DNA of 64,000 bases from an uncultured Bacteroidia bacterium (lineage in GTDB: Bacteria; Bacteroidota; Bacteroidia; NS11-12g; UBA9320): contig OX044357.1 in assembly GCA_943846675.1 (NCBI GenBank), positions 1,408,500 to 1,472,499 of the forward strand, in the 5' to 3' direction. The notes beneath the pieces were generated by a model. It worked only from the letters and a program-made list of their open reading frames with translations, did no database searches and had not been told where the DNA came from. Below are positions 31,003-44,433 of the stretch, piece by piece (the stretch's first letter is position 1; each line of letters begins with the position of its first letter). Both the position numbers and the translations under genes were made by a program.

Positions 31003-32364
31003 ATGCTAAACTTAAGTCCAAATAGAATAGACGGTAAGATCGAAACCAATAAGTATCGATCGTTTTCTATCGTTAAAGATTATAAATCAGGGAAGATTTT
31101 AGCTCGATTACTTATTATTTCTTTACTCACGTTTATTGTGGTCTTGTTTTTTCCTTGGACACAAAATATTCAAGTGAGAGGATATGTAACAACGCTTCAG
31201 CCAGACCAACGACCACAAACAGTGAATTCAATTATTGCTGGTCGGATTGAAAAATGGTTCGTACGTGAAGGGAATTTCGTGTCGAAAGGTGATACCATCA
31301 TGTTTATCTCAGAAATCAAAGACGCCTATTTTGATCCTGGATTACTTGCCAATACGGAATCCCAAATTAAGTCGAAGGAGTTAACAGTGGATGCCTACAT
31401 GGACAAAATTAAATCCTTGGATAGCCAGATAGACGCACTACTGCGCACTAAAGAGTTAAAAAGAGAACAGGCAAATAATTACATCGAGCAAGCCAGGTTA
31501 AAAATACAGTCGGACAGTATGGATTTAAGAGCAGCCGAAACGAATTTGACCATAGCCAAACGACAGTTCGAACGAATGGAAGAATTGTATAAGCAAGGCT
31601 TAAACTCTTTAACGGATTTGGAGTCTCGTAAGTTGAAGCTGCAAGAAACCCAGGCGAAGCGCATAAGTGCTGAAAACAAATTATTAAAAAGTAGGAATGA
31701 GCTTATCAATGCGGAAGTGGAACTAAGCTCAATTGATAACCAGTACCGTGATAAACTGTCTAAGGCAGAAAGCGAGAAATACGCATCACTGTCTAACATG
31801 TATGATGCAGAAGCCATTGTGACTAAAATGCAAAATCAGTATATGAATTATTCCATACGGACGGGTATGTATTATATAACGGCTCCGCAAGATGGTTACA
31901 TTACCAAAGCCATTCGGTCTGGTATTGGCGAAACTGTGAAAGAGGGAGAGGAGCTCTTGAGTATAATGCCAAGTAACTACGATTTGGCGGTTTCGATGTA
32001 TGTTAAACCCATGGACTTACCGTTGATGCAAAATGGTCAGAAGGTACGTTTTATGTTTGACGGTTGGCCCACGGTTGTGTTTTCAGGTTGGCCAAATTTA
32101 TCGTACGGTACATTTGGCGGAGAGGTGGTTGCCATTGATAATTTTATTAGTGAAAATGGCAAATACAGAATCTTAGTTGCTCCAGATCCAACTGATGAAG
32201 AATGGCCAACAGCATTGCGTGTAGGGTCGGGTGCAGATGGCATGTCTCTATTGCAAGACGTACCTATTTGGTACGAGATTTGGCGAAAGCTAAATGGATT
32301 CCCGCCAGATTACTACATCGATTTGAATTCCCAGAACCAAACACAAACAAAAAAAGGTACATGA
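31003..32364 (+). CDS. HlyD-family periplasmic adaptor (membrane fusion protein)
   Basis: N-terminal TM, a long coiled-coil region, and a C-terminal beta domain. It is positioned between the ABC and TolC genes. Confidence 0.8.
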   Translation: MLNLSPNRIDGKIETNKYRSFSIVKDYKSGKILARLLIISLLTFIVVLFFPWTQNIQVRGYVTTLQPDQRPQTVNSIIAGRIEKWFVREGNFVSKGDTIMFISEIKDAYFDPGLLANTESQIKSKELTVDAYMDKIKSLDSQIDALLRTKELKREQANNYIEQARLKIQSDSMDLRAAETNLTIAKRQFERMEELYKQGLNSLTDLESRKLKLQETQAKRISAENKLLKSRNELINAEVELSSIDNQYRDKLSKAESEKYASLSNMYDAEAIVTKMQNQYMNYSIRTGMYYITAPQDGYITKAIRSGIGETVKEGEELLSIMPSNYDLAVSMYVKPMDLPLMQNGQKVRFMFDGWPTVVFSGWPNLSYGTFGGEVVAIDNFISENGKYRILVAPDPTDEEWPTALRVGSGADGMSLLQDVPIWYEIWRKLNGFPPDYYIDLNSQNQTQTKKGT

Positions 32365-33776
32365 GTAAGCGAATTATAGGAATCATTTTTTGGTTGTTAT
32401 TGCCTTTTTATGGTTGGACGCAAGCAACGATAAAAACGTTTAGTCAAGATCAACTGCTCTGGTTTGTGCAGAATTATCACCCTTTAGCCAAACAAGCCAA
32501 CTTGGTTATCCAAAAAGGAGAAAGCACCGTACGCATGGCAAGAGGTGGTTTTGATCCGAAATTAGAAGGTCAGTTTGATCAAAAAACGTTTGACGATAAA
32601 AACTATTATAGTCTTTTGCAAGGTGGATTAAAGATTCCTACTTGGTATGGCATAGCGTTGAAAACAGGTTACGACCAAAACAGTGGCATTCGACTTAATC
32701 CTGAGGATGATGTGCCAAACGGAGGGTTGTGGTATGGGGGTATTTCTGTAACGCTGGGTAACGGTTTATTTATTGATCAGAGACGAGCAACCTTAAGACA
32801 AGCCCAAATATTTTCAGAATCGACGTATGCTGAGCAGCGTAAGTTGATGAACGATTTGTACTTTGATGCCATCAAGTCTTATTGGAAATGGGTCGCCGCA
32901 TGGAATCAGTTTTCTGTCTACGATGAGTCTTTGACACTTGCCCTCGACAGGTTTGAGGCTGTAAAGGGTAGTTTCTCCTTGGGCGACAAACCAGCTATTG
33001 ACACCTTAGAGGCATTTATTCTGGTTCAAAAACGTCAATTGAATCGGACGGATTATGCGCTCGAATATCAGAATGCAACCCTTGAATTATCCAATTTTTT
33101 GTGGTTTGAAAACAACACGCCGTTGTTGATTACAGACAGTTTAATACCAGTAAATTTGGACCAGTTGTCACTGCAAAAGACAATGCCTTACGACACCTTG
33201 GAGCAATTGATGATTGGACTTGACGGCAACCACCCAGATATGGTCTTGTATGATTTCAAACTTGCGACAATGAATATTGACAGAAGGTTGAAAAAAGAGG
33301 CTTTAAAACCGACGGTAAATGTACAATACAATGTATTAAACGAACCTATTGGGAATAGTGTGATTACAGGTTTAACACCCAACAATAGCAAACTTGGCGT
33401 ATCTACAGGATTCCCCATTTTCTTGCGTAAACAACGTGGTGCCCTGCAATTAGCAAACATCAAAATTCAAGAAACACAATTAGGGCGACAACAAAAGTTG
33501 CTTGAACTTCAAAATAAGTTACGGGTATACTACAACGAGCAACTGACATTAAATAATCAAGTAATTCTGTATACAGATGCAGTTGCGAACAGCAACAGGC
33601 TTTTGGCCGGAGAAAGGCAAAAGTTTAGCGCTGGAGAAAGCTCCGTATTTATGGTGAACACCCGGGAGAATTATGTGATTAACGCAAGATTGAAACTGGT
33701 TGAGTTAACCACTAAATACCAGATTTCTTCATCAGGTGTTCAGTGGGCAGCAGGAACACTGTTCACCATCAATTAA
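32361..33776 (+). CDS. TolC-family outer-membrane efflux protein
   Basis: ATG at 32361 overlaps the HlyD stop (ATGA). Signal peptide MSKRIIGIIFWLLLPFYGWTQA; two-repeat OEP architecture. Confidence 0.75.
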   Translation: MSKRIIGIIFWLLLPFYGWTQATIKTFSQDQLLWFVQNYHPLAKQANLVIQKGESTVRMARGGFDPKLEGQFDQKTFDDKNYYSLLQGGLKIPTWYGIALKTGYDQNSGIRLNPEDDVPNGGLWYGGISVTLGNGLFIDQRRATLRQAQIFSESTYAEQRKLMNDLYFDAIKSYWKWVAAWNQFSVYDESLTLALDRFEAVKGSFSLGDKPAIDTLEAFILVQKRQLNRTDYALEYQNATLELSNFLWFENNTPLLITDSLIPVNLDQLSLQKTMPYDTLEQLMIGLDGNHPDMVLYDFKLATMNIDRRLKKEALKPTVNVQYNVLNEPIGNSVITGLTPNNSKLGVSTGFPIFLRKQRGALQLANIKIQETQLGRQQKLLELQNKLRVYYNEQLTLNNQVILYTDAVANSNRLLAGERQKFSAGESSVFMVNTRENYVINARLKLVELTTKYQISSSGVQWAAGTLFTIN

Positions 33777-34000
33777 ACACTCTTTTGTGCGCTAAGGCCT
33801 GAACCACATGGGCCAAATGGTGATTGCAGTGCCAAGCGTATAAGCCTATAAAGTGATTTATGGTTAAAGTTGCCTCATGTTCTGGATGAACCAATAGCTT
33901 TTGTAGTTCGTCTGCTGACAAGTGATTTAAAAGGTATGACCACTTTTCATGTAAGCCATCTCTAGTGGTGAGTATGTTTTTTTTATATACATAATGTTTA
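33777..34000 (-). pseudogene. DinB/YfiT-superfamily-like C-terminal fragment lacking an in-frame ATG; a frameshift at an A8 tract restores a Met start
   Basis: The minus-strand frame ...NILTTRDGLHEKWSYLLNHLSADELQKLLVHPEHEATLTINHFIGLYAWHCNHHLAHVVQAL... has a His-rich HxxxHH tail. A +1 A in the aaaaaaaa run at about 33977-33984 would join it to ATG TAT ATA. Confidence 0.25.
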
Positions 34001-34104
34001 ATTCATGGGAATTTACAAAGGCCTACATGTACTTATGTTTATTCCCGCTATAAATGTAGGAAATCCACTTGGGTATCAGTGAAAAAATCAAAAAATCTAA
34101 ACAG

Positions 34105-34343
34105 GATTATTCCTCAAACCTTCGCAAGCTTCGGTTTTCTGTGTTTGTAAGATTTTCTGATTAGAACAATGTCGTTCTAGTAAGTGCTGAGATTTGTTTT
34201 TAATTTGAATAAATGAGAATTTCCGCCAACCGCCAACCGCCAACCGCCAACCTCAATGGTTAACGACATTTTATCCTAAATCAAAAATCATCAGTCAGAA
34301 ATCACCACAAGATTATTCCTCAAACCTTCGCAAGCTCCGGTTT
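34105..34343. repeat. Two ~33-bp direct repeats (gattattcctcaaaccttcgcaagctYcggttt) about 206 bp apart, each preceded by aatcaaaaa(a)tc, flanking a CCGCCAA x4 microsatellite
   Basis: Copies at 34105-34137 and 34311-34343, read directly from the sequence. Confidence 0.8.
34223..34250. repeat. Heptanucleotide tandem repeat (CCGCCAA)4
   Basis: ccgccaaccgccaaccgccaaccgccaa followed by the degenerate cctcaat. Confidence 0.9.
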
Positions 34344-34456
34344 ACGTCAAGATCCTGATAGGCTCCAAATTCCGAAAGCAAAGTTCATCCGCCTTTGGCG
34401 GCTTACTTTTTTGTTCCCTTTCGAAAACTCAAGCGAGCTTGGTTTTCTCTGGAAAC

Positions 34457-34497
34457 AAAAAAGTCCACCAACCGATCGGTTGGTGGACTTTGCTTTC
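34457..34497. terminator. Strong GC-rich perfect palindrome flanked by A and T runs (bidirectional terminator-like)
   Basis: aaaaaa-gtccaccaaccgatcggttggtggac-tttgcttt, a 26-bp palindrome at 34463-34488. Confidence 0.6.
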
Positions 34498-34563
34498 TTA
34501 GTGACCTTGGCAGGACAGAGTTCAAACTTTTTTGAGGATTTTAAGTTATTTAATAATTATGTA

Positions 34564-34941
34564 GGTTCTGTCGCACCTATTAGACAAGAATTTAAAAGTA
34601 CAATTATTTTTTAATTCTAAGCGGCCAATGACATGAACGATTTAAACATAGTTTTATCTTGACCAATCAACTGATTTTTCTTAATCATTCTGACAATTTC
34701 AATTCCTGATAAGGTTCTTCTAGCAGATTCAAATTCTTTAAATCCCAAACCTTGCTGAATTCGCCATTTGATAAAACGGTGATCTTGTTCGGTTCTGTCG
34801 CATCTGACTATTTTATTCCTTTTCTTTATCAAAAATGGAATCAGATAAATAATTAAAGTGCTGATTTTCAATTGAATTTATTTTATGACATTTGAATTTT
34901 ATCAGTTTAAATCGGTTAAATTTGGTAGATGCGACAGAACC
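34564..34941. mobile_element. Internally deleted IS6-family insertion-sequence remnant (MITE-like, ~378 bp) with terminal inverted repeats
   Basis: Left end GGTTCTGTCGCAC (34564-34576) and right end GTGCGACAGAACC-like (34930-34941) are inverted copies and resemble the IS6-family IR consensus GGTTCTGTTGCAAAGT. They enclose only a truncated transposase C-terminus. Confidence 0.5.
34617..34871 (-). pseudogene. Truncated IS6-family transposase (C-terminal ~50 aa only)
   Basis: ...DRTEQDHRFIKWRIQQGLGFKEFESARRTLSGIEIVRMIKKNQL matches the conserved IS6/IS26-type transposase C-terminal block (NxIEQDHRxIKxRxxxMxGFKSFxSAxxTLxGIExxxMIRKGQ). Confidence 0.5.
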
Positions 34942-35006
34942 CAAGCGTTGGCTTGTGTGAATTGCAAATGTGCTTGCGGCTACCTTTTTTAAGTTAATCA
35001 ATTATT

Positions 35007-36236
35007 TCACTTTTTTACTATTCTTGATAAGTATACCAATGGTTTTACAATAAGTAAATAGCTAAACTTCTTTAAAACGAAACTTTTATCAATAACCTTT
35101 GCTGCCTTTTCGCCATAATGGTAATACCATTTAACGAAACTTTCTCCCCAGTTTTTTGTTAAAATCCATTCATCTCGGAAATAACGTAATTCCATCACTT
35201 GTGGGTCGTCATAGCTGCCCATTGCTGCGGTTGCTATAAAACAAAAAGACTTATTACCGCATTCATGGCACACTCCTCTTTTCGCCTTTTTTGCTTTAAC
35301 GGTCATTGGGAGGCCGCATTTATCACATTTAACTGGCCGGTGGATACGGAGAAAAAATCGTTTAAAATATGAATTAGTACTAATGTTATCCCAATTTAAA
35401 GCTTTTAGGTTTATGAGGGTGTTTACTTTCAAAGAGATTATTATAAAATTTTTTTCTAGTAATGCAGGGTTTAATTTGAAAAAATCAAAAACTTTAGAAG
35501 AAATATTACTAACAGATTCCGAATCCGTTGTCAAGGTTAAACCACCATATGTAAATGATATTATTTGTTTATACACCTGTTCATTTGTAATTTTAATTTC
35601 AGCATCATTAAGAATAATGGATTTTTCAACAGAAGTTTGAGGAACTTCAAAAAAACTTTCTATTTTATTTAAAGGGTTACCTGATAAATCAATCTTTATT
35701 AGATAGTTAAAAGTATCATTTACATTTATCACAGAGACTTCGTTATTTGAAAGATTAATCTCCATAACATTAGGGAATAAAGCTAAATCTGATAAATCAT
35801 TAATTTTATTATTGCTAACATCTAAGAACCTTACCATTTCTAGTTCTGTATCACTAAACCAATCCGCTAGTTCAGAAATACTGATAAGTCCTTTATTTGT
35901 AACTTTTAATAAACCTGCACCTCCTGAGTAATCCGATTCAATATCATCTCTAAAAAATTTAGATGGTCTATTTTTAAAATGAACTATCCATCCATCATCA
36001 ACTCTAACTTTGTTATGTAGCTCAGAAAAATTAGGAACAGTTGATATTTTCTTTTCTTTTGGAGGTACTATGTGAGGTTTTGACTTTATTCTGCTTACAT
36101 GTTCTGTTTGAATTGACTTTCTTTTTATTGATGGAGTGCTTATCAAGTTAGAACAAAATTCACATTTCACATTAGATTGACCATCTTCATAAACGTTAGC
36201 AGCGCCACAACTGGTGCATGAAATTGACTTACTCAT
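35007..36236 (-). CDS. Zinc-ribbon plus leucine-rich-repeat protein with a second CxxC...CxxC pair and a conserved C-terminal module (paralog B)
   Basis: N-terminal CTSCGAANVY...CEFCSNL zinc ribbon. LRR units (LDVSNNKINDLSDLALFPNVMEINLSNNEVSVINVN...IDLSGNPLNKIE). CDKCG...CHECG, then FCFIATAAMGSYDDPQVMELRYFRDEWIL...LVYLSRIVKK. Confidence 0.6.
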   Translation of the reverse strand: MSKSISCTSCGAANVYEDGQSNVKCEFCSNLISTPSIKRKSIQTEHVSRIKSKPHIVPPKEKKISTVPNFSELHNKVRVDDGWIVHFKNRPSKFFRDDIESDYSGGAGLLKVTNKGLISISELADWFSDTELEMVRFLDVSNNKINDLSDLALFPNVMEINLSNNEVSVINVNDTFNYLIKIDLSGNPLNKIESFFEVPQTSVEKSIILNDAEIKITNEQVYKQIISFTYGGLTLTTDSESVSNISSKVFDFFKLNPALLEKNFIIISLKVNTLINLKALNWDNISTNSYFKRFFLRIHRPVKCDKCGLPMTVKAKKAKRGVCHECGNKSFCFIATAAMGSYDDPQVMELRYFRDEWILTKNWGESFVKWYYHYGEKAAKVIDKSFVLKKFSYLLIVKPLVYLSRIVKK

Positions 36237-36449
36237 TTCAATTTTTAAATTTGGTTATTTTTTTTAAATCTGTTATTTCCTTCAATAAGGTATCGCCTTC
36301 TTCTAAGTGTTTAAATAGCAATACTTTCAAGTTCCTTTAACATACTTCAAAGTGCTGTAAAAAACCCTTCTATCTCATAGTTTTTATTAGCTCTTTTTTT
36401 AATGACTTCAAGTGATTCTTCAATAAATTTTCTTATTTCTTCCATAATT

Positions 36450-37697
36450 TTACTTTTTTACTATTCTTGATAAGTATACTAATGGTTTCACAATAAGTAA
36501 ATAGCTAAACTTCTTTAAGATGTAACTTTTTTCAATGAACTTAGCAGCAATTGCTCCATAATGGTAATACCATTTAACAAAACTTTCACCCCAACTTTTT
36601 TGTAAAATCCATTCATCACGAAAATGACGTAACTCCATGACCTGAGGATGGTCATAACTGCCCATGGTGGCAGTTGCAATAAAGCAAAAAGAAGTTTCTT
36701 TATCTTTAAATGAGGTGCTATATTTTTTCAAATATGCTTCCTTAAGTTGGGAGAAATTGCCCGTCCTTATCTTTATTTCGTGATTACTCCCTTTTGAGTC
36801 AATAATATTCATTTTAAAAAGGATCTTATTTTCAAAATCCTTGGCCTTTAGGTAATTCCCGCTTTTCATTCGAATAAGAGGACCGTAATTAATTTTAGAC
36901 AACAAATCTGGTGAACCATCTGGGTATTTGTTTTTAAGTTTACGTATTGTGTCAGATAAATCAACAGGGTTGTCTGTAAAGTCTAAATTAACGCTGATAC
37001 CATCAATAATTAACACCTCTAATGCAACAAAATCAATCGTTTGTATTTTATTCTTTGACAGATCTATTTGCAGTATATTCTGTATTTTCCAATAATTAGT
37101 ATCAATTATTGTGTTTATATTGAAGGTAGTAATTAAGTTCTCTGATAAGTCTAATTTTTTTAATTCATTCGATTTTATGTTAAAATTAGTAGAGGTAATT
37201 TCATTATTTTTGAGAATTAATCTCTCAAGATTAATTAAATGAGAAATATCATAAGAGTCACTAAGTTTATTGTTCGAAAGATCTAGAAATCTGATACTTT
37301 GAAGTTCAGTATCGGTATACCAATCGAATAAGTCTTCAAATGCTTGTAAGTTCTTCCTCGTTAAAAGAAGTTCACCTCCCCCATTAGAATAATCAAATAC
37401 AATTTTATCTTGAACAAACTTAGAAGGTTTGTTTTTGAAATGAGCAATCCAACCATTGTCAACCCTAACAAGATTATGAGGTTCACCAAAATTGGGAGGG
37501 TTTGATGATTTTTTCTGCCTAGGCTTTGTAATTTCGGGTTTTGTTTTTAGGCGACTTTCTCCTCCATTTTTTATAGCTTTAGTTTCATTGATGGGAATAT
37601 TTATTACACTACCACAAAAATCACATTTAACTGATGATTCCCCCGATTCATAGATATTTGCCCCACCACAACTTTGACAGTTAATTGCTCTACTCAT
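36450..37697 (-). CDS. Zinc-ribbon plus leucine-rich-repeat protein sharing the N-terminal ribbon and the C-terminal module with 35007..36236 (paralog A)
   Basis: CQSCGGANIY...CDFCGSV, LRRs (LDLSNNKLSDSYDISHLINLERLILKNNEITS...LDLSENLIT...IDLSKNKIQTID). The C-terminal FCFIATATMGSYDHPQVMELRHFRDEWIL...LVYLSRIVKK is near-identical to the paralog. Confidence 0.6.
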   Translation of the reverse strand: MSRAINCQSCGGANIYESGESSVKCDFCGSVINIPINETKAIKNGGESRLKTKPEITKPRQKKSSNPPNFGEPHNLVRVDNGWIAHFKNKPSKFVQDKIVFDYSNGGGELLLTRKNLQAFEDLFDWYTDTELQSIRFLDLSNNKLSDSYDISHLINLERLILKNNEITSTNFNIKSNELKKLDLSENLITTFNINTIIDTNYWKIQNILQIDLSKNKIQTIDFVALEVLIIDGISVNLDFTDNPVDLSDTIRKLKNKYPDGSPDLLSKINYGPLIRMKSGNYLKAKDFENKILFKMNIIDSKGSNHEIKIRTGNFSQLKEAYLKKYSTSFKDKETSFCFIATATMGSYDHPQVMELRHFRDEWILQKSWGESFVKWYYHYGAIAAKFIEKSYILKKFSYLLIVKPLVYLSRIVKK

Positions 37698-38148
37698 TTT
37701 TATCGTTTTTAAATTGGATAAACATTTTTTTTGCTAATTTTTCAAAACTTACCTTTTCACCTTCGATCAGGATATATGTGTTTTGGTTAAAGGGTTTTAA
37801 TTTTTCTAACTCATTATTTACTTCTTCTACCTTGCCTAGCAATAGAAAACATTGAAAAATACCGTAATGACATTTTGCTGCGGTTTTTCCAAATTCATTT
37901 CCGCTGTCTAATGCAGAAATTGTTGCATCAGGATAATTAGTAATTACTTGATTGAATGTTTCAATTGCTTGCTCGAACTGTTTTATTTTAAAGTAGCAAA
38001 GACCAACATTATATAATGCATCATCAGCTAAATCACTTTGAGGGTATTCATCAATTAACATTTTGAATTTGTTGATTGAATCAAGATAAAATTCATCTTT
38101 AGCAAGATTAAGTCCTTCTGTAAAATACTGTATTTCGTTATCGTGCAT
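37690..38148 (-). CDS. Tetratricopeptide-repeat (TPR) protein
   Basis: 152 aa with about three TPR-like units (ADDALYNVGLCYFKIKQFEQAIETFNQVITNYPD...). The stop overlaps the start of the LRR gene. Confidence 0.55.
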   Translation of the reverse strand: MHDNEIQYFTEGLNLAKDEFYLDSINKFKMLIDEYPQSDLADDALYNVGLCYFKIKQFEQAIETFNQVITNYPDATISALDSGNEFGKTAAKCHYGIFQCFLLLGKVEEVNNELEKLKPFNQNTYILIEGEKVSFEKLAKKMFIQFKNDKNE

Positions 38149-38500
38149 TTCGTTTGTTTTTTTGTTCTTGTTTATAATCGGATGCCGAAAAAGTTTCGGC
38201 TTTAGAAACTTTCAAAATATATGTTGCTCCACCTAAAAGTAAAGCAAGTGCGACACCAAATCCTGTATCGTACCAAACTTGTTTGTAACAGATATAGCCA
38301 CCTACAATTAAAATAGAACTGAATAGAAATACAGCTACTTTACCGTTAATAGATGAAATAAAAGCGATAGGCAGAAATAAAATAATAAAAGCTATAATGA
38401 TTTGAGCAAACGAACGGTCAGTTTCAAAAGCATAAATTAATATCCCACAACTTAAACCTGCTAATAGTATTCCGATAATTGTACTTGCTATTTTACTCAT
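38138..38500 (-). CDS. Small integral membrane protein (3-4 TM helices)
   Basis: 120 aa, almost entirely hydrophobic helices, with a basic C-terminal tail. Coupled to its neighbours by overlapping start and stop codons. Confidence 0.5.
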   Translation of the reverse strand: MSKIASTIIGILLAGLSCGILIYAFETDRSFAQIIIAFIILFLPIAFISSINGKVAVFLFSSILIVGGYICYKQVWYDTGFGVALALLLGGATYILKVSKAETFSASDYKQEQKNKRNAR

Positions 38501-39483
38501 TATAAGTTGTTTAAAATTCGTTTTTTAGTTTCGTTAAACTCTTCTTGGTCAATGGCTCCCATATCCAATAACTCTTTAAGTTTTTTCAATTTTGAAAAAG
38601 AGTCTTCTTCTGTATCTGCTGATTGATTATTCTGTTGCATAGCTTGATTCATCATTTGTGGAATCATAAACCCCATACCCATACCTGCTCCGAGCCCCAT
38701 TCCTTCACCAGCATTTCCTGTAGGATTTTCTGCCGCCTTTTCCATTGATTGTCCCATTTGAAACTTCATAAAATCGTCCATATTTCCGACAGCAGACATT
38801 CCTGAGCGAGTGTCAATCATTTTTTGAACTTCTGGTGGAACTGAAACAGAATTAATTAAGAAATCATGTAATTCTAAACCCAGCCCTTCAAAATCAAGAT
38901 TTAAGCTGTTTTTTATTAAAATTGATAGGTTATCAAAATGTTGCGGTAAGTCGAATACTGTTTTCACATGTTGTCCGAGAGTAACGTTCAGTTTTTGAAG
39001 AATGATTGATTTTAAGTAATCCGAAATGTCGGAATCTCGAAAAACACCTTGTGTACCAACAACTTTATTTAGAAATAACGAAGGTTCTTTTATTGTAATG
39101 GAAAATGCTCCATAACTCCTCAACCTTATCATTTTCAATTCAGAATCTCTAAATAAGATTGGCTCTTTTGTTCCCCACTTTAAGTTTCGAAACAACTTCA
39201 TGTTAAGGAAATAAACCTCAGATTTGAATGGAGAGTCTTTTCCGTAACCTAATGAAGTTATTAATTTGGTTAAAATTGGAATGTTTTGAGTTTTTAAAAC
39301 ATGTCTACCAGCACTAAAAACATCTAATGATTTTCCATCTCTGAAAAAGACAGCCTTTTGACTTTCTCGAACAATGAGTTGAGCACCCATTTTAAATTCA
39401 CCACTACTATCTTCTGGTACTCTTTGCACCATAGAGTCTCCTGTGTTATCAAGGTATTCTATTATTTCCATTAGTTTTCCCAT
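38500..39483 (-). CDS. SPFH/band-7-like protein of the YdjI (COG4260, 'virion core protein'-annotated) type with a C-terminal SHOCT domain
   Basis: Architecture and blocks (GTKEPILF..., ...HDFLINSVSVPPEVQKMIDTRSGMSAVG) parallel Bacillus YdjI. A Gly/Met-rich linker leads to FSKLKKLKELLDMGAIDQEEFNETKKRIL, the SHOCT motif. Confidence 0.65.
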   Translation of the reverse strand: MGKLMEIIEYLDNTGDSMVQRVPEDSSGEFKMGAQLIVRESQKAVFFRDGKSLDVFSAGRHVLKTQNIPILTKLITSLGYGKDSPFKSEVYFLNMKLFRNLKWGTKEPILFRDSELKMIRLRSYGAFSITIKEPSLFLNKVVGTQGVFRDSDISDYLKSIILQKLNVTLGQHVKTVFDLPQHFDNLSILIKNSLNLDFEGLGLELHDFLINSVSVPPEVQKMIDTRSGMSAVGNMDDFMKFQMGQSMEKAAENPTGNAGEGMGLGAGMGMGFMIPQMMNQAMQQNNQSADTEEDSFSKLKKLKELLDMGAIDQEEFNETKKRILNNL

Positions 39484-39484
39484 C

Positions 39485-39934
39485 TTACAAATCTTTTAAG
39501 TACTGGTTTCTTTTATTAATTGAGTTTTCAAGTGATTGAATATGTTGTTTCGTATTCTCTAAATTCGTAGCTGCTAGTCCTTCTTGCAAATTTTCTGTAG
39601 CATCAAAAATGTCTAAATCCATTTGATAGATATTTTCAAGTTCCTCATTTTTAATTACTGAGTCTGAAAAAAAAGCAGAAGCCCCATAAGGTGAATACTT
39701 TATTAAATCTTTCAGATTATTGATTTTCTTCCTCACTTTTTCAATTTCAGCTAACTCAGATAATTCAGAAACTTCAATTAATGAATTGATAATTTTTTCT
39801 GTTTCAGAAAGCTTATCTGCAATTTGTTCTCTTAATTGTCGGTCGCATTCTCTTCTGCTGTCTCTTTCTTGATAACCTTTATAACCAGGTATCAATGTTC
39901 CGATTTTGTCAAATATGTTTGTTTTTCTATTCAT
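39485..39934 (-). CDS. Hypothetical coiled-coil protein, first gene of the operon
   Basis: 149 aa, highly charged with helical heptad character. The weak N-terminal IFDKIGTLI resembles PspA/Vipp1 starts, but I cannot establish that. Confidence 0.4.
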   Translation of the reverse strand: MNRKTNIFDKIGTLIPGYKGYQERDSRRECDRQLREQIADKLSETEKIINSLIEVSELSELAEIEKVRKKINNLKDLIKYSPYGASAFFSDSVIKNEELENIYQMDLDIFDATENLQEGLAATNLENTKQHIQSLENSINKRNQYLKDL

Positions 39935-40092
39935 ATTTATCAGTTATGTAAGCGTTGTCAAAAAAGCAATGTGTGCGCAGCACTCTTTGCTTTGTGCGGT
40001 GTTACCACATAAGTGCCTGCACCTCTTTGATAATAAATAATAAAATGTTTTGCAGCCATAGAGTTATTTTGTAAGTCTTCAAACACAAGCTC

Positions 40093-40115
40093 AAAATGCA
40101 GCCAATCTGCATTTT
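40093..40115. promoter_or_regulatory. Perfect 9-bp inverted repeat with a 5-bp spacer (aaaatgcag-ccaat-ctgcatttt) in the promoter region of the island operon; candidate operator
   Basis: Read directly. It lies between the XRE regulator gene end (40171) and the operon start (39934). Confidence 0.45.
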
Positions 40116-40170
40116 CGATTTAACAGGTATGTTTGTGCAGAATCAATAATTATTTTCATTAAAATTTAAT

Positions 40171-40362
40171 CTATCTACTTGAAACAATTAAATCTTTTAT
40201 ATCTACATCTATAATCTCAGCGATTTCATTCAAAATCTCCAATCGGGGTTGTTGTCTGTTTTGTACATAGCCGTTCACCATATTATAACTTTTATCTAAC
40301 TCTTCAGCTAGCCAAGTTTGCTTGATACCCTTTTCTTCTAGTACTTCTTTTATTCTGTTCAT
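40171..40362 (-). CDS. XRE-family (Cro/CI-type) helix-turn-helix transcriptional regulator
   Basis: 63 aa with the HTH_3 pattern IKQTWLAEELDKSYNMVNGYVQNRQQPRLEILNEIAEII. Confidence 0.8.
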   Translation of the reverse strand: MNRIKEVLEEKGIKQTWLAEELDKSYNMVNGYVQNRQQPRLEILNEIAEIIDVDIKDLIVSSR

Positions 40363-40453
40363 GATAATTTGAAATTCAATATCTAAAATAGATATTATAT
40401 ATTGAAAAACAAGATGTAAAAGACACTTATTTCAATACCTGTTAAATCGAAAA

Positions 40454-40510
40454 ACGTCGTTTGAACACAAATTACGACGTACAACGACGTTTAACGGCAT
40501 TCGACGTCGT
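40454..40510. promoter_or_regulatory. Cluster of at least four palindromic heptamers ACG(A/T)CGT upstream of the XRE gene; candidate operator or iteron array
   Basis: acgtcgt (40454), acgacgt (40474), acgacgt (40484), cgacgtcgt (40502). Confidence 0.45.
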
Positions 40511-40557
40511 ATTAAGGTTGTTTTTTTTTGAAAATGGAAAAGAGAGGTTACATGAAA

Positions 40558-40592
40558 AATAAAAAAAGGTCATGCAGTTTTCCTTGACCTTT
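40558..40592 (-). terminator. Rho-independent terminator (minus-strand sense)
   Basis: The minus strand reads aaaggtca-aggaaaactgca-tgaccttt followed by ttttttt; an 8-bp stem plus T-run downstream of the 40640-40962 small genes. Confidence 0.6.
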
Positions 40593-40758
40593 AGACCTGA
40601 ATAATGAAACTAAAAGAGTACAGATTATTTACATTCCCATATCCTTAAAATCTCCTATCAGTATTTTACTTAATCTTAACAAGGCAGTAACCCCTGCAAC
40701 AATAATTACTGCTCCAATCATTGTCTTAACTATTTTCTGAATCTCTTCATTAGAAGAT

Positions 40759-40962
40759 TTAGTCTTTTCCGTTTTCATTTTCTTTAGGTTTAATTTTAAT
40801 ACTATTCTGTTGTGCTCTTCTCGTAACGGCTGCGGAAACTGCTACTCCTATGAGTAGAACTCCGCCGACGATTATGAATTTTAACCAAGGATTTGATCCT
40901 GGTTGTGAATTTGTCCCCGAATTAAATCCGGGTAAGTTTTCTATTGGTGTTGGTACATTCAT
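40759..40962 (-). CDS. Small hypothetical membrane protein
   Basis: 67 aa with one TM (KFIIVGGVLLIGVAVSAAV). A 49-aa TM ORF in another frame (about 40640-40787) overlaps it. Which is real is unclear. Confidence 0.35.
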   Translation of the reverse strand: MNVPTPIENLPGFNSGTNSQPGSNPWLKFIIVGGVLLIGVAVSAAVTRRAQQNSIKIKPKENENGKD

Positions 40963-41402
40963 CGTTTTTTAATTTTTATTTTAAGAACTTCATTTCTCGC
41001 GTATATGCGATACATATATCTATAAGTAATATGATACTCTTTTTCATTATGGTTAATTCTTCCGATGTGATAACCAGATTTGAAACCATCAGCTTTAAGG
41101 ACATCATAAAACCTTTCAATTTCATCCTGTCTCTTCTCGCTATTAAAATGTCTTTCTAGAACGTTGTCATTCTTCAGTAGTATTTTTTCATCTCTTATTC
41201 TGTGTCTATTCTTGGACTTTCTCTTTCCGTGGTTGTAAGCAAAGTCAGCATGCTGCTTGTTTAAATAAATATTATCACTTCTACTAGGATAGAATGAATA
41301 GCCGCAACCACATTCACATTCTCTAGCGGAAATCGGTCTTGGTAGAGGTGTGCTTCCCTTAGGATCTAGTATTTCTTCTATTTCTATATTGTTTGGCTCC
41401 AT
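40959..41402 (-). CDS. Hypothetical protein
   Basis: 147-aa ORF with a CECGCG motif and no confident family. Confidence 0.35.
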   Translation of the reverse strand: MEPNNIEIEEILDPKGSTPLPRPISARECECGCGYSFYPSRSDNIYLNKQHADFAYNHGKRKSKNRHRIRDEKILLKNDNVLERHFNSEKRQDEIERFYDVLKADGFKSGYHIGRINHNEKEYHITYRYMYRIYARNEVLKIKIKKR

Positions 41403-41451
41403 TGTAATGAAAATATTACTATATTTGACAAATATAATAATTATTACGCAT

Positions 41452-42402
41452 ATGTCAGAACGAATAAATATTTTAAATCAGGAAGAGTTGGAGTACCTCA
41501 ACAGTTCTGAATATAAATTCGAATATCCAGGTCTTAGAAATGCTATGGACGTTCCCAGATTTACAATAAGTGATTTAGGGGTTACGGCAAGAGATGCAAC
41601 GTATTGGTCAAAGAAAGAAATTCTGCCTGAAGTCAAAGGCGGAAATACAACAAGGAGAAAATATACTTTAAAGCAAGCTCTATGGATAAAGCTAATTCAG
41701 CAACTAAGGTCTTTTGATATTTCACTTAACCAAATCAAAAAAATAAAGGATCATTTATTAACCTCAGATGTTAATATAAAGGAGCTGATGGAAAATGAGC
41801 AAGTGAATATTATACTCGAAAGATTGGTTGATAAAGATGGTCAGCTTGAAGAATATAAAAAATTAATGAAAGACCCTTCTTTTCTTAAAGAATTAGAAGG
41901 CCAAAATCTTGATGTTTTTGAGATGATGGTATTATATACAATTATATTCAGAAGGGATGTAAGCTACATAGTGACAGTCGATGGTTATGGCCTCCCATAT
42001 GTCTTTGATAAACATGAGATCATGAAAAAGAACTTTCCGGAGTTCGAGTTATTAATGAAAAGCCCTCATATCGTCCTTTCATTATCTCAAGCATATAGTC
42101 AGTTAATCCAGGATTGGAGTGAGAAAAAATGGTTTAATGAAGTGTCTATTGTTTCAAAGGATGAGAAAAAAATACTTGGTCTGATGCGGGATAAAACGAC
42201 CAAAGAATTGAGAATAATGAAGAATAAGGATGAGATAGACAGAGTAATCCTTATTAAGGACAAATCCATTAACGCCATAGAAGAGTTTGCTAATCACATC
42301 GTAAGAAACGGTTATCAGACAATTACGATTAGCACACGTCAAGGCAAGCCGGTCCATTTCAAAAATGAAGTATCTATTAAACTAAAGAACATACCGGAAT
42401 AA
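41452..42402 (+). CDS. Hypothetical protein with an N-terminal MerR/excisionase-type HTH
   Basis: Internal ATG at 41452 (MSERIN...). RFTISDLGVTARDATYWSKKEIL resembles the HTH_17/excisionase-like DNA-binding helix. It sits adjacent to the recombinase. Confidence 0.4.
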   Translation: MSERINILNQEELEYLNSSEYKFEYPGLRNAMDVPRFTISDLGVTARDATYWSKKEILPEVKGGNTTRRKYTLKQALWIKLIQQLRSFDISLNQIKKIKDHLLTSDVNIKELMENEQVNIILERLVDKDGQLEEYKKLMKDPSFLKELEGQNLDVFEMMVLYTIIFRRDVSYIVTVDGYGLPYVFDKHEIMKKNFPEFELLMKSPHIVLSLSQAYSQLIQDWSEKKWFNEVSIVSKDEKKILGLMRDKTTKELRIMKNKDEIDRVILIKDKSINAIEEFANHIVRNGYQTITISTRQGKPVHFKNEVSIKLKNIPE

Positions 42403-42639
42403 CCGGACAATTGATCTCCGCTTTCAGCACCGAAGAACGGACGTAAAGCACATGGGGAATAAATGTGAAAACAACTAACCAAATTAAAAGTGAACTTACA
42501 AATGATAAAAGAACACTAGAAAAAAGAAGAGAGGTAAAAGAGAAATTAAAAGTGCTTGGTGAAACAGAAGAGAACACCGAACGAATACTCACGTCAATTG
42601 AGTGTTATTGTCAACTGGTGTTGCAATCAATAAAAAAGA

Positions 42640-44238
42640 GTGAATATGGATAAACTAAACGAATTCAAAAAATTTAGCCCTGAGCGGAAAACTCTTGGAG
42701 AAAATAATAATGCAATTATCTATACTCGCGTGTCAACAAAAGAACAAGCGGACACAAACACTAGTCTTGGAACTCAAAAAAGGTATTGCGAAAATTATGC
42801 TAAAGCCAATGGGTTATATGTAGTAGCCTACTTTGGAGGAACCCACGAGTCAGCAAAAAGTGATGATAGAAAGGAGTTTAAAAGAATGCTTAAGTATGTC
42901 AAGCAAAGTGGCTCTATAGGTTACATTATTGTTTATTCATACGATCGGTTTTCAAGAACAGGATCTAGTGCATCTCAAATTACTCATGAATTACTCGATC
43001 AAGGAATTCAAGTTAAAGCTGTCACTCAAGAGGTTGATGCAACTTCGGCTTCAGGTAAATTCCAACAAAATCTATTCTATATGTTCAGTCAATTTGACAA
43101 CGAACTGAGAAGAGATAAGACAATCACTGCAATGAGTGACTTATTACGAAAAGGCTATTGGCTTTGGAATCCTCCGGTAGGCTATATTAACCAGAAAAAA
43201 TATCATAAAGCCGTGGAATGGGATATTGTGATTGATGAGAACGGAAAACAATTGAAGAAAGCTTTTAAGTGGAGATTGAAAAATACCTACTCGAATGTAG
43301 AAATAGTGCGAAGGCTGAATGCAGCAGGAATGATGATAAATGAAAAGCGCTTGCATGAGATTTTTAAGAATCCTTTTTATTGCGGAATCCTTGTCTGTAA
43401 AATGTTACCCGGAGAGATAATTGAAGGAAAGCACAAGCCTATTGTATCTAAAGAGGATTTTTTAATAATCAACTCTGAAAGAACACCCCAACTGAAAGAA
43501 TATAAAACGGATAACGATCAACTTCCTTTAAAGCAATTCGTTTATTGTGAGGCTTGCAAAACACCTTTGACGGGTTTTCTTGTCAAGCAAAAAGGGTTGT
43601 ATTATTATAAATGCAGAACCAAAGGATGCAGCTGCAACAAGTCTGCGAAACATCTACACGAGCAGTTTGAAAAGAAATTAAGTAGTTATCAAGTCGATTC
43701 TAAATATGTGGATATAATCAAAGAGGTAATGATTTACACGTATGATTCTGTAACTAAAGAAATAAGAGAGAATGAAGCAAATGTAAAGAAGCAATTGAGC
43801 CTGCTAAAGTCTAAAATTGATACCATAGAAGAACGCTTTGCAATTGGAGAAATTGACAATGAAATCTACAAGAAATTTAAAACTAAATATGAAGCGGAAG
43901 AAAAGAAGTTAGAGTCAAATTTATTCAGTTCTACAGTTTCGAGTTCGAACCTTCAAATAGCAATAGATAAAGCATTAAAAATGTCTTCCAACCTCAGTGA
44001 ATTATGGACTTCTGGAGATTTATCTCAAAAGAAGAAAATACAAAGTTTAGTGTTTCCATCCGGAATAGGTTACGACAAGTTAAAAGGCAAAGTTCAAACC
44101 AAAAGAGTTAACTCTATTTTCTCATCTATTCCACTATTGACAAAGGATTTGGATAAAATAAAAAGCGGAGAACCAGTTGATTTCAACCAATTCTCCGCAA
44201 GAGTGACCCTGCCAGGATTCAAACCTGGAACCTTCTGA
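42640..44238 (+). CDS. Large serine recombinase (resolvase/invertase-type N-terminal domain plus recombinase domain plus zinc ribbon)
   Basis: The catalytic region AIIYTRVSTKEQ...SYDRFSRT carries the resolvase Ser/Arg motifs. A C-terminal Cys cluster (CEACKTPLTG...CRTKGCSC) and coiled coil follow. The 3' end overlaps tRNA-Arg. Confidence 0.85.
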   Translation: MNMDKLNEFKKFSPERKTLGENNNAIIYTRVSTKEQADTNTSLGTQKRYCENYAKANGLYVVAYFGGTHESAKSDDRKEFKRMLKYVKQSGSIGYIIVYSYDRFSRTGSSASQITHELLDQGIQVKAVTQEVDATSASGKFQQNLFYMFSQFDNELRRDKTITAMSDLLRKGYWLWNPPVGYINQKKYHKAVEWDIVIDENGKQLKKAFKWRLKNTYSNVEIVRRLNAAGMMINEKRLHEIFKNPFYCGILVCKMLPGEIIEGKHKPIVSKEDFLIINSERTPQLKEYKTDNDQLPLKQFVYCEACKTPLTGFLVKQKGLYYYKCRTKGCSCNKSAKHLHEQFEKKLSSYQVDSKYVDIIKEVMIYTYDSVTKEIRENEANVKKQLSLLKSKIDTIEERFAIGEIDNEIYKKFKTKYEAEEKKLESNLFSSTVSSSNLQIAIDKALKMSSNLSELWTSGDLSQKKKIQSLVFPSGIGYDKLKGKVQTKRVNSIFSSIPLLTKDLDKIKSGEPVDFNQFSARVTLPGFKPGTF

Positions 44239-44277
44239 TCCGTAGTCAGATACTCTATTCAGTTGAGCTACAGGGCC
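44204..44277 (-). tRNA. tRNA-Arg (anticodon ACG)
   Basis: Hand-folded. Acceptor GGCCCTG/CAGGGTC with one G-U pair, D-arm GCTC/GAGT, anticodon stem TCTGA/TCAGA with loop CTACGGA (U33, ACG), T-arm CCAGG-TTTGAAT-CCTGG, discriminator A. No CCA is encoded. Confidence 0.7.
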
Positions 44278-44433
44278 GATTAAGGGGTGCAAAGATAAAA
44301 CGGTTTATATAATTATCTAACGTTTTTGTCCATTTGATTTAATTTTATGCCTTATCGTAAAATTCATATAACAATTCGATTTAGATTGATTATAATGTGA
44401 TGCCTTCTATATCTTTGTTAGCAATCCGAAAAA

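Follow-up and report, generated by a model that had tools for sequence, protein, structure and literature searches.

In a 64,000-nucleotide (nt) stretch of DNA from an uncultured Bacteroidia bacterium (contig OX044357.1 of assembly GCA_943846675.1; hereafter, the window), two neighboring genes encode proteins that share their ends and differ in their middles. Both proteins, paralog A and paralog B, open with a four-cysteine (Cys4) zinc ribbon and close with a C-terminal module named the CFI-box, and their genes are the last two of an operon that also encodes an SPFH protein with a Band_7_1 domain. The variable cores of such genes are exchanged as cassettes between operons that are otherwise nearly identical, with the coding sequence of the CFI-box serving as one of the recombination arms, and across the family it is the zinc ribbon that travels with the SPFH operon. 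On balance, we favor the reading that a Bacteroidota Band_7_1 (YdjI-like) SPFH membrane-associated complex, encoded by an operon on a mobile island, uses A and B as alternative sensor or adaptor subunits.

Two paralogs with constant ends and a divergent middle

A and B aligned at 44% identity (BLASTP, E 3e-113), a similarity far beyond chance, and they are true paralogs, as a first-pass annotation of the window had proposed. That annotation had also described mosaic conservation, with constant ends around a variable core, and pairwise alignment with identity scored by region bore this out: divergence is not uniform along the proteins. Over residues 1-150, which hold the zinc ribbon, a linker, a shared (K/L)VRVDxGWIxHFKNxPSKF block that had been rightly noted in both proteins, and the first leucine-rich repeats (LRRs), identity in windows of 30 amino acids (aa) was 43-67%. 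Alignment columns ~196-345 were gap-rich and only 3-27% identical. The C-terminal module then matched at 85-86% over 79-81 aa (~80% in 30-aa windows), with the final 22 residues identical in A and B. The earlier wording for this module, almost identical, was correct as to its conservation and too strong for an 85% match. The corresponding DNA repeat (34985-35249 and 36428-36692) is 83% identical and runs 22 nt beyond both stop codons.

The LRRs have a period of 22 residues (LxxLxLxxNxI). Motifs at residues 135, 157 and 179 are in register in both proteins and can still be aligned, and alignability is lost past about residue 190. The diverged LRR cores described earlier are therefore found past that point, and do not extend to the first three repeats. 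Strict in-register motifs number three in A and four in B, which has an extra one at 208; a relaxed pattern yields one more, irregular, repeat in B at about residue 231, and further strict-pattern matches in A, at 148 and 264, are off-period. Pfam LRR scores fell under the gathering threshold of 27 (LRR_8 25.1 and LRR_4 25.0 for B; LRR_8 18.5 for A).

An AlphaFold 2 (AF2) model of B, built with 66 homologs (predicted local distance difference test, pLDDT, 86.4), lays out the zinc ribbon at residues 1-33, a disordered stretch at 37-45, a beta domain at 60-111 and an LRR solenoid at ~116-245, followed by a helical stretch, a beta-alpha unit at 292-326 and four terminal helices that make up the CFI-box. 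When compared with the PDB by Foldseek, the model matched LRR proteins only (SDS22, dynein LC1, InlB and the Nogo receptor; E 4e-5 to 1e-3, probability 1.0), an assignment of the LRR fold by structure that covers the model of B. The beta-alpha unit of B sits where A has a second zinc-ribbon-like CxxC...CxxC pair; this pair had been assigned to B in the first-pass annotation, and the assignment is reversed. The closest relatives of the core of A were P0019 (51% identity over residues 77-326) and B itself (51% over residues 1-187).

A family with at least 18 unrelated cores

Searches with B identified 196 homologs at E <= 1e-3. Those that we inspected begin with the same Cys4 ribbon and end in a CFI-box that is 65-88% identical, with differing middles: TPR-like (tetratricopeptide repeat) in P0058, P0067, P0095 and P0107, for example, and of another type in P0044. 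An N-terminal ribbon was present in 165 of 202 full-length close relatives, and 11 of 168 ribbon-bearing members have, like A, a second ribbon within 60 aa before the CFI-box. All-against-all BLAST clustering of the cores of 167 zinc ribbon-X-CFI proteins gave at least 18 unrelated groups, the largest being LRR (96), TPR-like (31) and P0044-type (15). The only positions invariant across 148 sequences were the four ribbon cysteines (C7, C10, C25 and C28), which confirm the common N-terminal ribbon of the first-pass annotation, and residues of the CFI-box, about 20 in number, among them the cysteine that opens its CFIATA-type motif (C332 in A, C338 in B). The CFI-box protein sequence remains 72-91% identical (53% in the outlier L031) where the SPFH domains are only ~30% identical to that of the window. 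Judged by this architecture, A and B belong to a Bacteroidota family of the form zinc ribbon - variable core - CFI-box, an atypical subfamily of CFI-box proteins that lacks a transmembrane (TM) segment. A tblastn search with B found no match in phage genomes, and in plasmids found four distant CFI-box tails only.

The first-pass annotation had pointed out the CFIATA-type motif without placing it in a named family; a hidden Markov model (HMM) search assigned it to a named C-terminal domain, NCBIfam NF041770 (CFI-box-CTERM). Both proteins scored above the curated cutoff of 40 bits (Table 1) and covered profile positions 1 to 61-62 of 69, and close relatives of A and B already bear the CFI-box-CTERM name at NCBI. 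In A and B the module carries the CFIATA start and the LRxFRD and WGxxFVxWYY motifs and abounds in aromatic and basic residues; among close relatives it nearly always ends 0-9 residues from the C-terminus. The profile matched 20,986 representative proteins at E <= 1e-3 and only 92 at E <= 1e-30; by these counts the domain is very widespread, with the A/B type forming a tight subfamily.

A model of the CFI-box alone (four helices, pLDDT 84.4) had no fold match in the PDB (best E 4.4) or among BFVD viral models (best E 5.7), the profile had no sequence match in the PDB, and literature searches by name and by motif found nothing on the domain. Because it matches NF041770, yet has no match of these kinds, the CFI-box is a named but uncharacterized domain, and not a well-known housekeeping one. 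Pfam has no model for the module; PHROGs and PADLOC had no match to it either, and whole A and B drew only sub-threshold LRR matches from the three.

The zinc ribbon is tied to an SPFH operon

The Band_7_1 gene shares its strand with B and lies 803 nt upstream of it, and the genes between and around them are tightly packed (Table 1). The start of B overlaps the gene for a small TPR protein by 8 nt; that gene overlaps the gene for a protein with four hydrophobic segments (4-TM), which abuts the SPFH gene, which in turn abuts the gene for a 149-aa protein. This order is found again in unrelated contigs: a small helical protein, a Band_7_1 protein (with SHOCT or GYF_2), a TM protein of ~115-120 aa, an optional TPR protein and one or two zinc ribbon-X-CFI genes were found at L001-L007, L010-L012 and L091. 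Paired zinc ribbon-CFI genes in one operon also occur at L002/L003, L014, L015 and L020, with unrelated cores in three of these. We found no earlier description of this operon or of its cassette exchange in literature searches, which included SPFH with defence and Band_7_1. The SPFH protein and the 149-aa protein had no sequence match in the PDB.

To survey the genomic context of the domain, 78 loci were fetched with CFI-box patterns only. In this CFI-seeded set, a Band_7_1 gene lay within 6 kb upstream, on the same strand, of 11 of 14 close CFI genes that bear a ribbon, against 1 of 11 close genes that do not (Fisher p = 0.001) and 1 of 58 distant CFI genes. Because the association is partitioned in this way, the element linked to the SPFH operon is the zinc ribbon and not the CFI-box.

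No terminator was seen between B and A. A sigma-70 scan returned 33 sites where 29 were expected and is uninformative, as Bacteroidota promoters differ from the sigma-70 pattern. The spacer between B and A holds a frameshifted remnant of a gene for a 68-aa helical protein (Table 1), whose fragments match an intact gene at L015 (8562-8768, DNA 81% identical) that is also downstream of a CFI gene; small genes like this one follow CFI genes at other loci too. At two loci, L006 (9276-10664) and L007 (9248-10492), a zinc ribbon-LRR-CFI gene is followed by a gene of similar size (414-462 aa) with no CFI motif and no Pfam match, which may encode another kind of partner or sensor.

Cores are exchanged as cassettes

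The operon is also present on a related contig, L091, in which one TPR-type gene, encoding P0067, takes the place of B and A. Along a left arm (window 40084-37907), the two sequences differ by 3 mismatches in 2178 nt, after which mismatches become dense; along a right arm (window 35174-34791), they differ by 1 mismatch in 384 nt (99.7% identity). The right arm consists of the last two-thirds of the CFI-box of A and 216 nt downstream of the gene. The first 69 nt of the same CFI-box (window 35243-35175) have 14 mismatches, and apart from this start of the CFI-box the sequences between the arms are unrelated. This interval measures 2.7 kb in the window, where it takes in the last ~70 codons of the TPR gene, all of B, the spacer and A as far as codon 354, and about 1 kb in L091, where it comprises the TPR C-terminus and the core of P0067. 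The position of the right junction inside the CFI-box of A is consistent with the module of A being nearer to that of the TPR-type P0067 (97% protein identity) than to that of B (86%). Since near-identical flanks in L091 and the window hold different genes, and one junction falls inside the CFI-box, variation in this family arises mainly from cassette replacement by recombination between nearly identical operons. We saw no invertase, shufflon or silent cassette array in the window, and the swap looks like homologous recombination of the ordinary kind between related operons.

A third version of the operon, at L010, is ~91% identical to the window along its whole length through B and has an Mrr gene instead of A. 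Comparison of the three copies of the small TPR protein (window 37690-38148, L091 2516-2965, L010 3233-3691) revealed that the first 80 residues are nearly identical and that the C-terminal ~70 residues switch with the cassette, being LRR-type in the window and L010 and TPR-type in L091. Such covariation would fit a physical contact between the TPR protein's tail and the variable core, and also plain genetic linkage.

In the CFI-box, synonymous divergence (dS) does not follow that of the operon backbone: it was 0.3-1.0 in every comparison, whereas SPFH dS ranged from 0.01 (L091) to 2.96 (L004). Between A and B, dS was 0.88 in the CFI-box and saturated elsewhere, which confines the use of dN/dS (the ratio of nonsynonymous to synonymous divergence) for this pair to the CFI-box. 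We estimated selection on the core from a single ortholog pair, B and its 89% ortholog in L010, for which dN/dS was 0.07 in the ribbon, 0.39 in the LRR region, 0.33 in residues 246-335, 0.11 in the CFI-box and 0.06 in the SPFH gene. The ends are under tighter constraint than the core, whose ratio, at well below 1, indicates relaxed constraint and not positive selection. The diversifying selection suggested by the first-pass annotation is thus not indicated by this check. Given the dN/dS of 0.11, the decoupled dS, the junction and the conservation across operons, the CFI-box is under strong purifying selection and doubles as a recombination arm for replacing or adding cores.

A and B lack the signals of exported CFI-box proteins

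The 58 distant CFI-box ORFs (open reading frames) of the survey, from Proteobacteria, Bdellovibrionota, Omnitrophota and Bacillota, mostly encode large proteins with a signal-peptide-like hydrophobic N-terminus, in which an extra helix of strong hydrophobicity and an Arg-rich (RRRR) tail come after the CFI-box. The 25 Bacteroidota-type ORFs (E < 1e-30) are without the hydrophobic N-terminus and end right past a helix, ...LLIVKPLVYLSRIVKK, that aligns to the pre-TM helix of the canonical proteins. In A and B it is the terminus ...LSRIVKK that aligns to this helix, and the best 19-residue hydropathy was 1.07 in the module of B versus 1.8-2.3 in canonical tails. Sequence inspection and hydropathy found in A and B no signal peptide, no N-terminal hydrophobic segment, no TM segment in the tail that passed the hydropathy threshold, and no surface anchor (LPXTG, GW, lipobox or TM). 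Because they have a Cys4 ribbon at the N-terminus, stop before the canonical TM helix and basic tail, and are of low hydropathy, A and B are most likely cytoplasmic, possibly peripheral membrane proteins, and not exported receptors. The surface receptors of the first-pass annotation are accordingly not sustained by the signal and TM checks. Its link between the motif and surface proteins was apt for the distant members, which have a signal peptide and a C-terminal TM anchor; A and B have neither. We also considered a classical TM tail anchor in the last helix; for B, the hydropathy of 1.07 and a net charge of +5 led us to reject this, and the helix may bind the membrane peripherally.

Other Bacteroidota CFI-box proteins, without the ribbon, have a J-domain-like N-terminus (NPFRILGV, with no obvious HPD) and adjoin an Hsp70-like gene. 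At L019 (7271-15784), L023 (128-8547) and L008 (3507-10150), they form another conserved system of Bacteroidota: two tandem proteins of ~470-490 aa, of which only the second has the CFI-box, and then proteins of ~350, ~820 (Hsp70-like) and ~626 aa, the last of which carries the annotation AAA ATPase in Haliscomenobacter. This J-domain-like and Hsp70 setting of the ribbon-less members suggests that the TM-less CFI-box is a general C-terminal localization or assembly module of cytoplasmic machines.

A proposed role and its competitors

We propose, by analogy with YdjG and YdjI of Bacillus subtilis, that A and B would dock on the SPFH scaffold through the zinc ribbon and a short conserved KxKPxI linker, with the CFI-box keeping them at the inner membrane face or in an oligomer. 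Ligand binding would fall to the LRR or TPR core, and two subunits in one operon would widen the specificity. Because the context is mobile and the putative sensors are polymorphic and stackable, we would expect an accessory, mobile sensing role, with conflict or defence a strong candidate and envelope-stress sensing an alternative.

Several observations weigh against this proposal. The survey counts behind the association of ribbon and SPFH gene are not phylogenetically independent, and the zinc ribbon-CFI genes of L016 and L025, which have ample upstream sequence, have no SPFH neighbor. Nine proteins compared with the PADLOC-DB v2 defence models gave no match at E <= 0.01, no operon protein has a recognizable enzymatic effector domain, and no PspA/IM30 match was found in any of them with Pfam or NCBIfam. 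Paralog A, only presumably expressed, sits behind a decayed small gene and a 213-nt spacer. Contact of A and B with the membrane, the 4-TM protein or the SPFH protein is our inference; no structure, solved or predicted, was found to resemble the CFI-box, which makes any role given to it a guess, and in distant homologs it appears to be extracytoplasmic (signal peptide and TM), which is awkward for a purely cytoplasmic role.

The competitor that survives best, which we consider possible if rather doubtful, is an envelope-stress (Psp-like) module. Under this explanation the operon is the Bacteroidota counterpart of pspA-ydjGHI, and A and B are chaperone-like adaptors that bring client proteins to the SPFH scaffold when the membrane is stressed, with no role in conflict or defence. 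The TM-less protein with Band_7_1 and SHOCT domains fits such a module, as does the presence of a zinc-ribbon partner and a small membrane protein in one operon, as in ydjGHI (PMC8581546, PMC11237479). A role in anchoring proteins at the inner membrane leaflet has been put forward for SHOCT-like domains (PMC11237479), and LRRs and TPRs are generic protein-binding scaffolds. The missing PspA/IM30 match, however, counts against this explanation as well. So do the location of the operon on a low-GC integrative island, its proximity to mobile and defence genes in other genomes, and the swap of cores between 99.9%-identical backbones together with the number of unrelated core types, which would be unusual for a housekeeping stress system.

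A bolder version of the sensing proposal, which we regard as unlikely, is that the operon is an unrecognized mobile membrane-associated sensing or immune system in Bacteroidota. Here an SPFH cage or scaffold would restrain the 4-TM protein as an effector, ribbon-LRR/TPR-CFI sensors would detect phage, other mobile genetic elements or damage, and the CFI-box would be both a membrane-proximal docking module and a DNA homology arm through which operons swap or stack sensor cassettes.

It is improbable that A and B are plain tandem duplicates under concerted evolution, with a conserved tail that reflects gene conversion between A and B only and an arrangement of no special function. The unsaturated dS of their CFI-boxes and the extension of the DNA repeat past the stop codons would be expected from such conversion, and identical residues use the same codon at 51 of 69 positions in the CFI-box compared with 37 of 81 in the N-terminus (p = 5e-4). 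Yet the 384 nt of the A locus that match the TPR-type gene of the other contig at 99.7% match B at 84%, the module is conserved across Bacteroidota classes whose SPFH proteins have diverged far more, its invariant residues and low dN/dS point to strong purifying selection on the protein, and gene pairs at other loci have unrelated cores. Least probable are surface-anchored, internalin-like LRR receptors or adhesins with external cores and the CFI-box as a sorting or anchoring signal: weak NCBIfam internalin-type LRR matches, far under their cutoffs, and the distant CFI-boxes that follow a signal-peptide passenger and precede a TM helix and basic tail lean that way, but A and B have a ribbon at residues 7-28 in place of an N-terminal hydrophobic segment and stop short of the hydrophobic tail, their operon partners (TM-less SPFH, SHOCT, GYF_2) are of cytoplasmic type, and the sister Bacteroidota CFI proteins are J-domain-like and sit beside Hsp70 genes.

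The island and its flanks

The GC fraction is 0.30-0.35 across 34000-44000 and about 0.40 outside, and a large serine recombinase gene overlaps a tRNA gene at one end of this region (Table 1). From its composition and gene content, the operon is cargo of a ~10 kb low-GC integrative island (34000-44300), which also carries small TM ORFs. Resolvase, DUF5131, DNA methylase, Mrr, WYL and GmrSD genes lie near homologous operons. At the left border of the island, the tRNA-Arg end has no convincing direct repeat of the att type; a weak match of 16 nt at 34501-34516 was all that we found.

Several other features lie at or near this border. A hairpin with a perfect 14-bp stem and T-runs on both strands (34460-34491) resembles a bidirectional terminator, and the sequence right after it (34500-34530) bears a weak likeness to the 3' end of the tRNA-Arg. 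In the insertion sequence (IS) debris next to A, an inverted-repeat-like GGTTCTGTCGCA is seen twice in one orientation (34564 and 34791) and again inverted (about 34921-34935); a 151-bp unit (34791-34941) is present twice in L091 and is similar to a miniature inverted-repeat transposable element. Left of the island, a non-coding 45-nt direct repeat (34093-34137 and 34299-34343, 89% identical) surrounds a (CCGCCAA)n microsatellite (34223-34250). The left flank holds a gene for an outer-membrane efflux protein (32202-33776; OEP, E 1.3e-30) and the right flank a 795-aa gene with a signal-peptide-like start (44434-46821).

Table 1. Positions of the paralogs, their parts, the operon and the island features in the window.
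Feature	Position	Strand	Basis or remark
Paralog A	35007..36236	minus	Intact ORF, 409 aa; Cys4 zinc ribbon - beta domain - 3 LRRs - divergent region - second zinc ribbon - CFI-box
A zinc ribbon, residues 1-33	36138..36236	minus	Alignment with B and invariant cysteines
A LRR region, about residues 116-200	35637..35891	minus	Motifs 135, 157, 179
A second zinc-ribbon-like CxxC...CxxC (A only)	35259..35327	minus	C304, C307, C323, C326 (CDKCG...CHECG), from sequence
A CFI-box, residues 332-409	35007..35243	minus	NF041770 70.9 bits, E 5.6e-20
Paralog B	36450..37697	minus	Intact ORF, 415 aa; zinc ribbon - beta domain - LRR - alpha/beta unit - CFI-box
B zinc ribbon, residues 1-33	37599..37697	minus	AF2 strands E3-6, 13-16, 22-24, 31-33; C7, C10, C25, C28
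B LRR solenoid, about residues 116-245	36963..37352	minus	Motifs 135, 157, 179, 208, irregular ~231
B CFI-box, residues 338-415	36450..36686	minus	NF041770 72.7 bits, E 1.6e-20; four helices
B-A spacer, frameshifted remnant of 68-aa helical-protein gene	36238..36445	minus	Fragments MEEIRKFIEESLEVIKKRANKNYEIEGFFTAL, ...KELESIAI, ...LKEITDLKKI
Small TPR protein, 152 aa	37690..38148	minus	Pfam TPR_6 E 3e-12
120-aa protein, four hydrophobic segments (4-TM) and basic tail	38138..38500	minus	Conserved position in L004, L010, L015, L091; no Pfam/NCBIfam match
SPFH protein, Band_7_1 and C-terminal SHOCT, no TM	38500..39483	minus	Pfam Band_7_1 E 5.9e-62, SHOCT E 4e-9
149-aa predicted helical (coiled-coil-like) protein, first gene of operon	39485..39934	minus	Conserved position; LIMLP_15305 match weak, below cutoff; no match to PspA or any other Pfam family
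XRE-type helix-turn-helix regulator, 63 aa, upstream of operon	40171..40362	minus	PHROG transcription-regulator families E 6e-12
Left recombination junction	37906..37907		Inside small TPR gene, about codon 81; comparison with L091
Right recombination junction	35174..35175		Inside CFI-box of A, codon R354/D355; comparison with L091
147-aa ORF	40959..41402
MerR_1-type protein, 350 aa	41350..42402
Large serine recombinase, island end	42640..44238	plus	Pfam Resolvase, Recombinase, Zn_ribbon_recom; 3' end overlaps tRNA-Arg(acg)
tRNA-Arg(acg)	44203..44277	minus	Overlapped by recombinase 3' end
IS6-family debris adjoining A	34564-34941		DDE_Tnp_IS240 C-terminal fragment at 34617..34871, minus

Comparison with known systems

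SPFH or flotillin-type scaffolds are ubiquitous, and what the bacterial ones organize is poorly understood. To our knowledge, the Band_7_1 (YdjI) branch has been studied in B. subtilis only. The locus described here is a Bacteroidota version of this branch whose predicted scaffold partner is polymorphic, with swappable cassettes, and it gives a first contextual handle on the CFI-box, a domain of about 21,000 representative proteins. If the cores are sensors, the locus would be a test bed for how SPFH proteins couple ligand recognition to the membrane, for coding sequence that doubles as a recombination arm, and for whether an under-sampled phylum harbors a new system for defence or stress. Were the immune-system explanation true, recombination would have built, in this family, a modular repertoire of LRR/TPR receptors in prokaryotes.

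Among studied systems, the nearest parallel is pspA-ydjGHI (samGHI), where a Band_7_1 SPFH protein, a protein that begins with a zinc ribbon and a small membrane protein are encoded together, as in the window. In B. subtilis, YdjH and the zinc-ribbon protein YdjG recruit YdjI (SamI), a cytosolic Band_7_1 SPFH protein, which restrains the signaling of both (PMC8581546; PMC9239133; PMC11237479; bioRxiv 10.64898/2026.02.06.704340). The likeness may extend to the proposed logic of a sub-membrane scaffold recruited or regulated by its operon partners; the ribbons are compared by architecture only, the N-terminus of YdjG, as far as a primer in one report gives it, reading MIISYKCPNC (PMC8581546). 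YdjG has a TM segment and an NTF2-like (YpeB-related) domain, with pspA in its operon (PMC11237479), whereas the operon of the window has no detected PspA, and its ribbon proteins have an LRR or TPR core and a CFI-box in place of the NTF2-like domain and TM segment. The membrane protein of the window is a 120-aa 4-TM protein and not a TPM-domain protein, and the tail of the SPFH protein is SHOCT or GYF_2 instead of a zinc ribbon. The operon of the window also differs in being mobile and in having a polymorphic putative sensor subunit.

As members of NF041770, A and B resemble the rest of that family in HMM score, CFIATA motif and C-terminal position of the domain. They and about 100-200 Bacteroidota relatives differ from the distant members in having a zinc ribbon instead of the usual signal-peptide-like N-terminus and the trailing TM helix and basic tail. 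With short LRR domains (SDS22-like, internalin-type and dynein LC1-like) they share the 22-residue repeat and, for the model of B, the LRR fold match. Unlike those proteins, they have only 3-5 repeats, set between the ribbon and beta domain on one side and the CFI-box on the other, with no signal peptide or cell-wall anchor. NCBIfam internalin models scored 12-21 bits against cutoffs above 1000, and A and B do not look like internalin-like surface proteins.

The target-recognition domains of hsdS and the C-termini of polymorphic toxins provide a precedent for the exchange itself: in both, constant blocks flank a variable specificity block and act as crossover sites. The operons compared here follow the same pattern, in that near-identical backbones carry unrelated cassettes and constant blocks serve as the sites of crossover. 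They depart from it in that both ends of the protein are constant and it is the middle that varies.

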